64,000 nt of DNA from Escherichia coli O157:H7 (GTDB lineage: Bacteria; Pseudomonadota; Gammaproteobacteria; Enterobacterales; Enterobacteriaceae), in NCBI RefSeq assembly GCF_013167455.1, contig NZ_CP038328.1; one strand, written 5' to 3'. Position numbers: made by a program. This document shows positions 18,001 to 24,000 of the stretch, in pieces. Numbering within the stretch: the stretch's first letter is position 1; each line of letters opens with the position of its first letter.

Positions 18001-21000
18001 GACGATCTCAAAACCTACGGGAGCGAAGTGCTGCCGAATCACGAAAACAGCAAGGCTATCTTCTGGAAAGAGGGCGAGCCGCTGAAAAAGGGCGACAAGC
18101 TGGTGCAGGCGAACCTGGCAAAGAGCCTGGAGATGATTGCCGAAAACGGCCCGGACGAATTCTACAAAGGCACGATAGCGGAACAGATTGCCCAGGAGAT
18201 GCAGAAAAACGGTGGCCTGATCACTAAAGAAGATTTAGCGGCGTATAAAGCGGTCGAACGCACACCGATAAGCGGCGATTATCGCGGGTATCAGGTTTAC
18301 TCCATGCCACCGCCATCCTCCGGCGGGATCCATATCGTACAAATCCTCAATATTCTGGAAAACTTCGATATGAAGAAATACGGTTTTGGCAGCGCCGACG
18401 CGATGCAGATCATGGCAGAAGCGGAGAAATATGCCTACGCTGACCGCTCGGAATATCTTGGCGACCCGGATTTTGTGAAAGTCCCGTGGCAGGCGCTGAC
18501 CAATAAAGCCTATGCCAAATCTATTGCCGAGCAAATCGATATCAATAAAGCGAAACCGTCCAGCGAGATTCGCCCCGGCAAGCTTGCGCCTTATGAGAGT
18601 AATCAAACTACCCATTATTCGGTGGTGGATAAAGACGGTAACGCGGTGGCGGTGACCTATACGCTGAACACCACCTTCGGTACGGGTATTGTCGCGGGCG
18701 AGAGCGGTATTTTGCTCAATAACCAAATGGATGATTTCTCTGCCAAACCGGGCGTACCGAACGTTTACGGGCTGGTGGGCGGTGATGCCAACGCCGTCGG
18801 GCCGAACAAACGCCCGCTGTCATCGATGTCACCAACCATTGTGGTGAAAGACGGTAAAACCTGGCTGGTCACCGGTAGCCCTGGCGGGAGCCTGATCATC
18901 ACTACAGTGCTTCAAATGGTGGTGAATAGCATCGATTATGGCATGAACGTCGCCGAAGCGACCAATGCGCCGCGTTTCCACCATCAGTGGTTGCCGGACG
19001 AGCTGCGTGTCGAAAAAGGGTTTAGCCCGGATACGCTCAAGCTGCTGGAAGCAAAAGGTCAGAAAGTGGCGCTGAAAGAGGCGATGGGCAGTACACAAAG
19101 CATTATGGTTGGGCCGGACGGTGAGTTGTACGGCGCATCCGACCCGCGCTCGGTGGATGATTTAACGGCGGGGTACTAAGGTTAGCGGCCCTCTTCGTGG
19201 GAAGAGGGCTGTTTTCTTGAACAAGATAAATTAGTGTCTGGATTGCTTTTACTATTGCTCCGTAATATATAATCATAATTATCCTGAATGCTTTTAAGGG
19301 GCTTAGGTTATGCTTTCTTTTCAAGAGTATGCAGAATAGTCTTTCATTTACCGTGAAAATAGGACGTGCGATAATTACTTCCTGATATTCAGGAAAGGAA
19401 TTAACTATGCTATTAAATAAACTGTAGTTATAGTTCATTTTAGAGTGTAATTTATTGATTTAAATATCACGCTTTGTGTTGTTTATGTGCATAATGGCAT
19501 TCATCATGACTTTGATCGATTTTGTAAAGTGTTTTTAAGGGGGAATAATGAAAGCAAAATACGTGATTCTCTCTGTACTTAATAAACAAGAACTCTTCTA
19601 TTTAAAATCAAGATACAAAGAAATGAAGAAACTTGCTAATAAGCATGAAGTCTCTCTCGTAGAACAAAATTTCATTGATGCTATTATTTCAATGGTGGGT
19701 TATTGCTCTTTGGGGTTTGGGTTGGTAAGTATAGTTAATGGGATATTGCTTGTATTCTCATTTTTTCAGGATAATATGTTGAAAAGTTTTTTTCTGTCTT
19801 CAATCGTTAGTATTGCCATGTTCGCTATTCTTATCATACACAGAAAACTGGATACTAAATTCTCTTACCAATTATGCCTCAAAATGTTTTATCTTAAAAT
19901 TAAGTTATTCTGTTATTGTATTCCTGCACCAGTTGTAGTTCCTGATATATTCATTAATAATTGATGTGGCATATGATTATTGAGGCCATGTTTTATCCTC
20001 AAATTTGTATTTTCATCATAAAATGTAACCTTGAATTTTTTTACAGTAGAACTAATTTGTATGATTTTTAAAGGGGTAGGTTTTAATGAGAATTTATTTT
20101 TAAAATCAACTGATGTGTAATGAAATAATCGTCCTGTACCAGGTCTATTTCCTAATGAAGGACGAATCAATCTATTATACTTAGGTACGATTTTCATGCC
20201 TGAATATCCACCATATGCAGTAATCGAAAAGTCCACGATGCTGTATGCATAATCAGCAGAATTAATATCACCTCCCATTTTTTTTGCTATTACTCTGTAG
20301 AGTTCACGTATTGGACCTGAATCATACTCGTTAAAAAATAAAGGTGATAAGCTTTCATAAAAATTATTCGCCCCATGAGCAACTAATGTGACGCCTATAC
20401 CTTTTATTCGGTTTGAATGCACTACCTTACCAAATTTCAACGCGCCAACCCCGCCTACGACCTGTCCTACAGATGCAACAATATCGAAACTTAAGTTCAC
20501 ATATTTTATCAAACCATGTTCTTCGAAAATATCAGTAGTGATATATTTATCATAATTTCCTTGTCTGAAAAGTTGATATTCTTTTCTTGCTGTTTCTGAC
20601 TCCATTTTTAATTCATTGATAAGTCGTGCTTTTTCATTGATGTCATATGAAGAATTGAATCTGTGAGTAATATCATTAATAGTATTTTCTATTTCTTGCA
20701 GATACTCGAATCTAACTAATGGGGACTCAATAAAAAATGTTGAAGCAAGTGTTGCGGTTTTGCGTAAAGAAAGGGCATATTTGTTAAGATCATATCGTAA
20801 ATGACTTATAGCTGCTGTACCCATTAAGTAGACTCTCTATCCATAAACAAACAGTAATAACTATTGCTTGCGAAAATATGTTCTCTTTAATAAGAAATAT
20901 TAACGAGTAATGATTCAAAGGTCTCTTGATGTTACAAATTGTTTCAAAATGATGGTGGTAATATAAGGAAAAACTCAAATTAGATGAACAAAACTAATTA

Positions 21001-24000
21001 TTCACATTGGTAACAGGCAATTTGAGAATATTCTTTACTTCACCCGCGCCATAAAATACGCATCAACATATTCACCATTACGTAATGCGTACTTCTTGCC
21101 AGTCCCTTCAATCTCAAAGCCGAATTTTTTATAGACCTTAATTGCTGGCGCGTTATCGACGAACACCGTTAGCTCAATACGATCTACCCGCAACCAGTTG
21201 TCGCACATTTCAATCATCTCTCGCATCAGGGCGCTGGCGACGCCGCGATTCTTCCAGCGGGCGTCGACACAGATACCAAAATCGGCAACATGACTGCGGC
21301 GTGGGCGCTGTTGCACGTCAATGGTGAGATGGCCCACGACGTCTCCATCAATACAGGCGACGAGTTGCTTGATGCCGGGACGATCGGCGAGTCGCTCCTG
21401 CCACATATGATCGGAAGGATGAGGCACCTGTAGTGTGTTGTAATACACCTCCGGCTGGGCGTGAATCTGCCTGATGGCCTCGTAATCCCGTGTTTCAGCA
21501 TGGCGTATCACTATCTCACTCATTCCTTTGTCCTCTTTGGGGTAAATGTCCCTTTCAACATCATTGACTTTCGAATGCGAGTCAAATGCATTTTTTTGCA
21601 AAAAGTGTTGGACAAGTGCGAATGAGAATGATTATTATTGTCTCGCGATCAGGAAGACCCTCGCGGAGAACCTGAAAGCACGACATTGCTCACATTGCTT
21701 CCAGTATTACTTAGCCAGCCGGGTGCTGGCTTTTTTTTTGATCTTTCGTTCTCAATTTATCCTCGGGAAGTGCTTGTGTTCGTTATGCGCACTCCAGTAG
21801 GAACCACGTCCGCTTTGCGCTAAGGTGTAAATAACCACCTTAAAAAGGACGAAATCATGGTCATCAACTGCGCCTTTATTGGCTTCGGCAAAAGCACCAC
21901 CCGTTACCATCTGCCGTATGTACTTAACCGCAAGGATAGCTGGCATGTCGCGCATATTTTTCGCCGCCATGCAAAGCCGGAAGAACAAGCTCCCATTTAC
22001 TCTCATATCCATTTCACCAGCGATCTCAACGAAGTGCTAAACGATCCCGATGTTAAGCTGGTTGTTGTCTGCACCCATGCGGACAGCCACTTCGAGTACG
22101 CGAAGCGCGCGATGGAAGCCGGGAAAAATGTGCTGGTCGAAAAACCGTTCACTCCGACACTTGCGCAGGCGAAAGAGCTGTTTGCACTGGCGAAAAGCAA
22201 AGGGCTGACCGTCACGCCATATCAGAATCGTCGCTTTGATTCCTGCTTCCTGACGGCGAAAAAAGCGATTGAAAGCGGCAAGCTGGGAGAGATTGTCGAA
22301 GTGGAAAGCCATTTTGACTATTACCGCCCGGTGGCAGAAACCAAACCTGGGCTGCCGCAGGATGGCGCGTTCTATGGCCTTGGTGTGCATACGATGGACC
22401 AGATTATTTCTCTGTTCGGTCGCCCGGATCACGTCGCTTATGACATCCGCAGCCTGCGCAATAAAGCCAATCCTGACGATACTTTCGAAGCGCAACTGTT
22501 TTATGGCGATCTAAAAGCCATCGTCAAAACCAGCCATCTGGTGAAAATCGATTATCCGAAATTTATCGTTCACGGTAAGAAAGGTTCGTTTATTAAATAT
22601 GGTATCGACCAGCAGGAAACCAGCCTGAAGGCTAATATTATGCCGGGCGAACCGGGATTCGCAGCGGATGATTCGGTCGGTGTGCTGGAGTATGTCAATG
22701 ACGAGGGCGTGACGGTCAGAGAAGAGATGAAGCCGGAGATGGGCGATTACGGGCGCGTTTATGATGCGTTGTATCAAACCATCACCCACGGTGCGCCAAA
22801 TTACGTCAAGGAATCTGAAGTTCTTACGAATCTGGAAATACTTGAACGTGGATTCGAGCAAGCCTCTCCCTCCACAGTGACTCTCGCGAAGTAAGTTTGA
22901 TGGCCCCTCGAATAGTTCAATTTTTTTGAACAGAGGGGTCAATTTTCACCCTCTATCATCCCAGGCAGATCGGGTCCACACTAAGCCCATCGAAATCATT
23001 CAGGGGGCGAATACAAATGATCTACTTACGCAAAGCAAATGAACGTGGTCATGCAAATCATGGCTGGCTGGACTCCTGGCATACTTTCTCTTTTGCCAAC
23101 TATTACGATCCGAACTTTATGGGCTTCTCCGCGCTGCGCGTGATTAACGACGACGTGATTGAAGCAGGGCAGGGCTTCGGCACTCACCCGCATAAAGATA
23201 TGGAAATTTTGACCTACGTGCTGGAAGGTACTGTTGAGCACCAGGACAGCATGGGCAATAAAGAGCAGGTTCCGGCGGGCGAGTTCCAGATTATGAGTGC
23301 GGGTACGGGTATTCGTCACTCAGAGTACAACCCAAGCAGCACCGAGCGTCTGCACCTGTATCAGATCTGGATCATGCCGGAAGAAAACGGCATTACGCCG
23401 CGTTATGAACAGCGTCGCTTCGATGCAGTGCAGGGCAAACAACTGGTGCTTTCGCCAGATGCGCGTGATGGTTCATTGAAAGTGCATCAGGATATGGAAC
23501 TGTACCGCTGGGCGTTGCTGAAAGATGAGCAGTCGGTGCATCAGATTGCCGCTGAACGCCGCGTCTGGATCCAGGTGGTGAAAGGCAATGTCACCATTAA
23601 CGGCGTGAAAGCCTCGATCAGCGATGGTCTGGCAATCTGGGATGAGCAGGCAATCTCCATCCATGCGGATAGCGACAGCGAAGTGTTACTGTTCGATCTG
23701 CCGCCGGTTTAAAGCTCAACGGCATCTTTGAAGCCTGCCTTTTTGCAGGCTTCCTCGCTCGCTCCGGTCGCGTGCTGATGTACGCTTCCGGGGTTTTGCA
23801 GCGTCGTTAGCACAATGCGATGCAATTGATTTAGTGTATATCTAATAATTGTAAACAAGCACTGTTTTCCCCGGGAAGGTTCTGATGCGTCCGTGTTAAA
23901 CTAAGAGAATCTATCTCTTTTGTACCTTCAGGACGATGAAAAAGAAAAGACCCGTACTTCAGGATGTGGCTGACCGTGTAGGCGTGACCAAAATGACGGT

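Follow-up and report, generated by a model that had tools for sequence, protein, structure and literature searches.

Between ggt and yhhY, the genome of Escherichia coli O157:H7 carries a short AT-rich islet, which we analyzed within a stretch of 64,000 nucleotides (RefSeq assembly GCF_013167455.1, contig NZ_CP038328.1; hereafter, the window). The islet is very probably a reduced Hcp auxiliary module of a type VI secretion system (T6SS), consisting of a DUF4225 toxin gene and a gene for a membrane immunity protein, the hcp gene having been lost. Averaged over 300 bp, the GC content is 0.28 to 0.36 across positions ~19200 to 21050 and 0.45 to 0.62 in the flanks; the islet as a whole has 31.2% GC versus 51.6% for the window, and in 1-kb bins it is the sole part of the window to fall below 0.40, all other bins lying between 0.449 and 0.584. 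DNA homology to genomes with K-12-type or empty versions of this site (see below) ends at position 19215 and restarts at 21035. The initial annotation of this DNA had reported, correctly, both the strong AT-richness relative to the backbone and the presence of a 303-aa open reading frame (ORF) on the minus strand facing a 138-aa ORF on the plus strand, with two transmembrane (TM) segments and a 3' overlap of about 50 bp (52 bp as measured). Its statement that the 303-aa protein has no assignable motif is not borne out, as the protein is a clear member of Pfam DUF4225, a family with a published T6SS toxin function. That family and the conserved small TM partner described below make the toxin/immunity pair that it had envisaged among other contents the right kind of content for the islet.

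The only match retrieved by a Pfam scan of the 303-aa protein is DUF4225 (E = 2.3e-36; residues 71 to 246, model positions 2 to 162 of 165), in agreement with the RefSeq name. A word-indexed homologue search returned only near-identical E. coli sequences, and distant relatives came from a full HMMER search. An alignment of 63 sequences revealed an invariant G151 and conservation of at least 90% at G118, Q121, G125, G144, E157, G184, Y194, L233, and D240; the E. coli protein has every one of these core residues. Hydropathy analysis of the core revealed a glycine-rich, moderately hydrophobic helix (residues 110 to 132) with glycine-zipper spacing and a second helix bearing the AHGANNxYE motif. 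Residues 1 to 89 model as a three-helix bundle rather than an Hcp β-barrel, and there is no Hcp domain in the same polypeptide. Scans of the 303-aa protein against NCBIfam, PADLOC, and PHROG yielded nothing significant (no hit of any kind in PADLOC), and sequence searches of the PDB with either the protein or the 63-sequence profile yielded nothing below E = 0.1.

The sole functional study of DUF4225 that we found in the literature searched (Jana et al. 2022; PMC9765294) showed that a Vibrio parahaemolyticus DUF4225 protein encoded after hcp in an auxiliary module is an antibacterial effector delivered by T6SS1. It is toxic to E. coli only in the periplasm, where it is lytic, and inactive in the cytoplasm, and it is neutralized by a small adjacent transmembrane protein. 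The same study noted that DUF4225 also occurs at the C termini of PAAR, VgrG, Hcp, Rhs, and two-partner-secretion toxins (PMC9765294). In an Erwinia homologue, its Phobius run predicts two TM segments (PMC9765294).

To place the E. coli islet among its relatives, we compared the contexts of the closest distant relatives together with 13 loci in reference genomes of Phytobacter, Edaphovirga, Erwinia, Kosakonia, Mixta, Enterobacter, Pectobacterium, and Brenneria, 16 Enterobacterales loci in all (the scan for loci used a 7-sequence alignment, a 14-sequence one being too divergent). The DUF4225 gene codes for 273 to 300 aa at these loci and is directly preceded by an hcp gene (154 to 159 aa) at 14 of the 16, the remaining two (L017 and L019) lacking an adjacent hcp. 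A convergent gene for a 120- to 144-aa protein with two TM segments lies 3' of the toxin gene at all 14 loci with enough downstream DNA, and five loci have two or three diverged copies of it in tandem. The stop codons of toxin and partner range from a 14-bp overlap to a separation of 91 bp, and the convergent orientation is a conserved trait of this enterobacterial subfamily. Data set S4 of PMC9765294 contains at least one locus of this kind, from Erwinia mallotivora, in which Hcp precedes the toxin and a 2-TM protein of 105 aa is entered as "downstream" at -7; therefore, the subfamily has already been catalogued, its orientation not being discussed there.

A close counterpart is found in Phytobacter ursingii ATCC 27989 (L012), where the gene order is yhhY, hcp, DUF4225, three immunity genes, ggt, yhhA, and ugpQ. 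It matches both flanks of the window, and therefore a complete module sits in the same interval, with the same gene order and orientation, in another genus. The toxins of the two species are 58 to 59% identical and the predicted immunity proteins 33 to 37% identical, including the C-terminal KIPVPQ.LPDDW / CIPAPVVVPDIF tail. In the P. ursingii module, unlike the E. coli islet, hcp is intact (159 aa), the immunity gene comes as three diverged paralogues in tandem (L012 5842-7444), and the GC content is 39% versus 31%. We found no description of it in the literature searched.

A trace of the missing hcp is still present in E. coli. Upstream of the toxin gene, the same strand reads F*NNL*HQETFESLLVNISY*REHIFASNSYYCLFMDREST* (asterisks are stop codons), which is colinear with the Hcp C terminus FPNSLTHNDVQPxESISxxYESITWEHVxAGTSxYSxWxDRVY*. 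The Hcp profile scores this relic low (6.5 bits, profile positions 119 to 157), with none of 300 shuffled sequences reaching that score (maximum, 5.8), and its strand, frame, position, and junction with the toxin gene are the same as in intact modules (L009). The relic is common to all seven E. coli strains compared, and together with the intact-module junction, this indicates that the E. coli islet descends from a complete module. Most of hcp, presumably with its promoter, was lost before the islet spread within E. coli.

The 138-aa partner has hydrophobic segments at residues ~45 to 70 and 79 to 100, and its ORF is preceded by a strong ribosome-binding site. A profile built from 20 small proteins of the related loci, with E. 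coli excluded, matches it end to end (55.9 bits; E = 1.3e-12 in a search space of 5 million sequences), and it is the only match to that profile among all six-frame ORFs of the window. The family has a common plan, with an N-terminal helix (IL.SGF..ELL.LK..Y), two sequence-variable hydrophobic helices, and a basic C-terminal helix (LKL..LR). On the basis of charge distribution, both ends are predicted to be cytoplasmic, with only a short loop in the periplasm. A profile search of 5.8 billion proteins recovered 66 clusters, all annotated as "hypothetical protein," without a Pfam domain, and all from Enterobacterales. Scans of the 138-aa protein against NCBIfam, PADLOC, and PHROG gave nothing significant, the ThsA model being a weak, partial match at E = 0.01. 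The identities of toxins and partners are correlated across loci (r = 0.84; 0 of 5,000 permutations reach that value), and such codivergence fits a co-inherited toxin-partner pair. Because of its adjacency to the toxin gene, its membrane location, the tandem paralogue arrays, and the Vibrio precedent, the 138-aa ORF is likely the immunity gene. Its length and TM count suggest a family different from Imm4225(18764), the immunity protein of the Vibrio module. RefSeq annotates the gene only in non-O157:H7 records and omits it from the O157:H7 records examined.

Certain relatives show further rearrangements of this theme. In a more distant DUF4225 clade (L033 and L034), hcp and a small 2-TM gene are codirectional, with the toxin gene converging on them; L034 adjoins plasmid mobilization genes (NikA/MobC, MbeD). 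At L037, the partner consists of two immunity-like repeats fused into one 264-aa ORF (3966-4760). The genome of Edaphovirga cremea that carries L013 has a second module (L015, 5001-6858) with a toxin truncated to 213 aa; downstream are an extra DUF4225 N-terminal fragment (6373-6621) and a small hydrophobic ORF, resembling a decayed duplicated array.

The 303-aa length of the O157:H7 toxin is a derived state. Alignment of the islet with those of six other genomes revealed, in O55:H7 and unrelated strains, a run of five A residues (A5) on the coding strand where O157:H7 has four. With the A5 allele, the toxin ORF is 282 aa long and ends in FYDEKYKFEDKTWPQ, and its stop codon lies 12 bp beyond that of the 138-aa gene, with no overlap (e.g., L003, toxin 2262..3110 on the minus strand and immunity gene 1833..2249 on the plus strand). 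In O157:H7, a 1-bp deletion swapped the native last 11 residues for a 32-residue tail, which is an antisense reading through the end of the immunity gene and creates the overlap at 19913-19964. Full-length relatives from other genera (270 to 298 aa) align to residues 1 to ~271-276 only, and their C termini (YDGKYKFNDE, WDEKYKFENK) match the ending of the 282-aa form rather than the O157 tail. In a survey of 5,426 complete E. coli genomes, we found the islet in 342 (6%), always single copy and chromosomal; 41 carriers match A5 exactly, and ~299 have the deletion, all of them of the O157:H7 type. The A5 carriers include O55:H7, the sister lineage of O157:H7, O157:H16, and assorted human, poultry, pig, and mink isolates. 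The extent of alignment of the relatives, the C-terminal match, and this allele distribution together show that the 282-aa form is native, and the 303-aa length and 52-bp overlap are thus artifacts of the frameshift in the O157:H7 lineage rather than a designed feature. RefSeq (PGAP) flags the 282-aa allele as "frameshifted" (L003-L006 and L039-L043) and the O157:H7 303-aa allele (L007) as intact; on the above evidence, the flag is on the wrong allele. The frameshift need not inactivate the toxin, because more distant relatives end before the lost 11-residue segment and the O157 tail is modeled with low confidence; it may be harmless.

On the basis of these observations, the following mode of action can be proposed. 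The complete module comprises hcp, then the DUF4225 effector, followed on the opposite strand by one to three immunity genes. Judged from its homology to the Vibrio effector, the toxin would leave the attacking cell on the Hcp tube and lyse the target cell, acting from the periplasmic side of its envelope. It may do so in or at the inner membrane, as is suggested by its hydrophobic, glycine-rich helices and by a partner that resides in the membrane. The producer and its kin would be shielded by the 138-aa inner-membrane protein. The E. coli copy has kept a single immunity gene and the hcp relic, and any delivery would depend on a T6SS encoded elsewhere in the O157 genome. Given an integral-membrane partner of which almost nothing reaches the periplasm, the most economical model, to which we give an even chance, has the toxin approach the inner membrane from the periplasmic side, insert into it or act at it, and be blocked inside the membrane. 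The invariant Glu/Asn motif could, just as well, be catalytic.

The islet is a recognizable kind of element, not a new kind. Among the systems closest to it is the Hcp1b-DUF4225(18764)-Imm4225(18764) module of V. parahaemolyticus CFSAN018764 (PMC9765294), with which it shares an unfused, hcp-linked DUF4225 domain and a small TM neighbor. In the Vibrio prototype locus, hcp (1007-1507, minus strand) is followed just downstream by the toxin gene and by the immunity gene (296-27). All genes of the Vibrio module are codirectional, and its immunity protein has 89 aa and three TM segments, whereas the partner of the islet is convergent and 138 aa long; it is predicted to have two TM segments and, at either end, a conserved cytoplasmic helix, and its family is confined to Enterobacterales. 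Further, E. coli has only a relic of hcp, and the enterobacterial subfamily is known here from sequence alone. The features new here are the unnamed convergent immunity family, the hcp relic, the O157:H7 frameshift that makes the overlap, and the inverted RefSeq label. Toxins that act on membranes and are countered by integral-membrane immunity proteins include the pore-forming colicins (Cai/Cia-type immunity), Tme1/Tmi1, and Ssp6/Sip6. The islet resembles these in its all-helical toxin with a glycine-rich hydrophobic helical pair and in an inner-membrane immunity protein with a short periplasmic loop; however, it has no sequence or fold similarity to them, and the likeness is a lead to mechanism, not membership.

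Several observations weigh against the islet being a reduced T6SS module that works as proposed. No intact hcp is present beside the toxin gene in the window, and the native operon partner and probably the promoter are gone. The O157 toxin allele is frameshifted at its C terminus, and two of 11 non-O157:H7 carriers have truncating toxin frameshifts. In strain ABW_A19 (L044, locus 1-746), an IS4-like element, ISVsa5, replaces the 5' part of the immunity gene next to an intact 282-aa toxin, a genotype that kin actively exchanging the toxin could hardly tolerate. Unlike the codirectional 89-aa 3-TM Vibrio immunity protein, the partner is convergent, so that its role is argued from context, and linkage alone could be the source of the toxin-partner codivergence. 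As to mechanism, fold searches gave no specific match and thus no structural support for any biochemical mechanism, and the published DUF4225 phenotype, a lysis, is more like that of a cell wall amidase than that of a membrane disruptor and is unlike that of Tme1 (PMC9765294), which speaks against a simple pore.

A version of the same explanation that differs only on present-day function is a defensive one, in which the toxin is undelivered in E. coli and selection keeps the immunity gene against DUF4225-armed gut Enterobacterales; we consider it possible but hold it tentatively. It would account for the reduction of hcp to a relic in all seven strains compared, for the toxin frameshifts in the O157:H7 clone and the two other carriers, for toxin substitutions that are mostly nonsynonymous, and for an immunity ORF that has a strong ribosome-binding site and is intact in 11 of 12 genomes, and the tandem immunity arrays of the relatives show that these genes are individually valued. 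Yet, the asymmetry is weak, as the 282-aa toxin ORF is complete in nine of the 11 non-O157:H7 carriers and the immunity gene, intact in 10, is destroyed in one. An impression from seven genomes that the toxin decays while immunity persists was dropped on the 12-genome sample, in which the toxin is disrupted in two and the immunity gene in one. Moreover, divergence among carriers is below 1% overall, which is too little to judge selection and leaves little time for decay, and the O157 frameshift may, as noted above, be harmless. Conversely, O157:H7 might still use the pair as an active cargo effector and immunity protein against competitors, loading the toxin on a chromosomal Hcp of the ECs_0216 type. 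This is again a possibility that we entertain with reserve. The window has no T6SS core cluster or compatible Hcp; in O157 Sakai, a T6SS cluster is located at aspV, and its Hcp (ECs_0216; 159 aa) shares 45 to 57% identity with the module Hcps along its entire length. This relation came from comparing proteins, a search of E. coli DNA with the Phytobacter hcp having given no match. T6SS-dependent antibacterial antagonism by O157 is reported (reviewed in PMC6730261), every O157:H7 genome listed has an open toxin ORF, which is annotated as an intact gene, and L017 and L019 likewise lack an adjacent hcp. Set against this are the loss of the native upstream gene and promoter, the 32-aa nonnative tail, and the annotation of ECs_0219, inside the Sakai T6SS cluster, as a pseudogene; the genotype of ABW_A19 speaks, for that strain at least, against a toxin that is firing.

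The two remaining alternatives dispense with secretion. The initial annotation had mentioned anti-phage genes, and an AT-rich accessory islet with a small membrane protein would suit a system of phage defense or abortive infection, or else a classical toxin-antitoxin pair, with no tie to the T6SS, as would two faint hits of the 138-aa protein, one to a SAVED-fused 2TM effector domain (E = 0.14) and one to the ThsA model. We regard this as highly improbable and find no support for it: neither protein has a significant PADLOC, PHROG, or NCBIfam match, the relatives are flanked by hcp and not by defense genes, and the published DUF4225 toxin is inactive in the cytoplasm (PMC9765294). Type II toxin-antitoxin features are absent too, the genes being convergent rather than an operon and the partner a membrane protein without a DNA-binding domain in place of a soluble, DNA-binding, cotranscribed antitoxin. 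That the frames are open by chance in AT-rich junk DNA can practically be dismissed. Such DNA has few GC-rich stop-free constraints, and RefSeq leaves the 138-aa ORF unannotated in the O157:H7 records, but for either protein, other genera have homologues that are significant, full length, and in conserved synteny, which refutes it.

A bolder proposal, which we think doubtful, starts from the tail-to-tail arrangement of toxin and immunity genes, which leaves no room for a terminator and is kept in all close relatives and also at loci with hcp on the immunity strand. The arrangement might be a clade-specific regulatory design that couples expression of the two genes, whose 3' transcripts would necessarily overlap, by antisense or transcriptional interference. 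The partner might then be a new immunity family in which the cytoplasmic helices are conserved and the membrane and periplasmic parts are not, implying a noncanonical protection, with the O157:H7 islet serving mainly as orphan immunity against DUF4225-armed competitors.

The ggt-yhhY interval was suggested in the initial annotation to be a replaceable cassette site with a different content in K-12. RefSeq does place yrhB, yrhD, IS1, yrhA, and yhhZ (tssD) in the K-12 interval, and comparison of strains revealed at least four states of the site in E. coli. In the survey of complete genomes, the K-12-type yhhZ-yrhA cassette is present in 3,766 of 5,426 (69%); other states are yrhB only, an essentially empty site with the stop codons of ggt and yhhY 60 bp apart, and IS1 and IS5 variants. 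The K-12-type and yrhB-only cassettes are preceded by the same ggt terminator hairpin as the islet, and the empty-site strains (L029 and L031, ~1834-1895) have a different one, of the AAGCCCTCACC...GGTGAGGGCTT type. Because the empty-site hairpin differs from that of all cassette-bearing strains, the terminator travels along with the junction's cassette side. In YhhZ (Hcp-ET1), an HNH nuclease is fused to an Hcp; the protein is delivered by T6SS2 (reviewed in PMC6730261). Like the islet, the yhhZ-yrhA cassette lies in the ggt-yhhY interval next to yhhY and pairs a T6SS Hcp-linked toxin with an adjacent immunity gene; in contrast, its toxin is Hcp-fused and a nuclease acting in the cytoplasm, its immunity protein is soluble and encoded codirectionally, and outside the flanks it has no sequence similarity to the islet. 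As the Hcp domain of YhhZ is related to the Hcps of DUF4225 modules (37 to 43% identical), the interval is a hotspot for Hcp-linked T6SS toxin cassettes, which replace one another across E. coli and in Phytobacter, in support of the replaceable site suggested at first. We found no direct repeats, integrase, or transposase at the islet flanks. Because the junctions are sharp and lack direct repeats and mobility genes, we rejected the islet as a self-mobile element, and cassette replacement by recombination within the flanks is the likely route.

These results provide a likely function for two O157:H7 genes, ECs_4291, annotated as "hypothetical" or "DUF4225," and the 138-aa gene omitted by RefSeq. 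If the immunity gene works, it could affect the survival of O157:H7 under attack by Enterobacterales in the bovine gut. The convergent immunity family also offers a tractable second DUF4225 toxin-immunity pair for finding the target of the toxin domain.

Table 1. Features of the ggt-yhhY interval, in window coordinates
Feature	Position	Strand	Remarks
ggt, left flank	ends 19179		RefSeq annotation of identical genomes
Intrinsic terminator of ggt, with hairpin GCCCTCTTC-gtgg-GAAGAGGGC and T-run; left islet junction	19188..19215	+	Read from sequence
AT-rich islet, probable reduced Hcp-DUF4225-immunity module	19216..21034	.	1,819 bp, 31% GC
AT-rich spacer	19216..19547	.	332 bp, without recognizable gene
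138-aa inner-membrane protein, predicted immunity protein	19548..19964	+	Unnamed family; 2, possibly 3, TM segments
DUF4225 toxin gene, O157:H7 allele, 303 aa (ECs_4291 / WP_001302024.1)	19913..20824	-	Pfam PF13988
12-bp gap of the ancestral allele (19965-19976), with the toxin's native stop codon (19977-19979)	19965..19979	.	Stop codon now out of frame
Frameshift site, A4 run on coding strand (A5 ancestrally)	20010..20013	-	Extra base in O55:H7, O157:H16, and unrelated strains
DUF4225 domain, aa 71-246	20087..20614	-	Glycine-rich hydrophobic helix (aa ~110-132); AHGANNxYE motif (aa 149-157)
hcp 3'-end relic, ~40 codons with in-frame stops	20824..20943	-	TAATG overlap with toxin ATG
yhhY, right flank	stop at 21035		RefSeq annotation of identical genomes

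The spacer shows no immunity gene remnant by tblastn or profile search and no DNA similarity to the other loci, and scans for consensus promoters and terminators stayed at background level. A 111-aa ORF on the minus strand (19103..19438), open in all strains compared, begins in the spacer and continues across the ggt terminator into coding sequence of ggt; it is probably spurious.

Elsewhere in O157 Sakai (L032, 16872-19013), the hcp gene ECs_0216 is directly followed by four small genes without an annotated function, ECs_0215 to ECs_0212 (73, 198, 149, and 98 aa), two of which code for signal-peptide-like N termini and which are possibly another Hcp-linked effector/immunity set. The window itself has two further loci that drew our attention. 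Between livJ and panM, a pair of genes on the plus strand (4267-5067; 88 and 175 aa; local GC slightly low, 0.45 to 0.47), named in Sakai as a toxin-antitoxin system antitoxin component (ECs_4308) and an acetyltransferase (ECs_4307), resembles a GNAT-toxin/RHH-antitoxin module. Between ugpB and livF, a 248-aa ORF on the plus strand (10826-11572; ECs_4300, "hypothetical") has a hydrophobic N terminus and a helical-repeat-like remainder.

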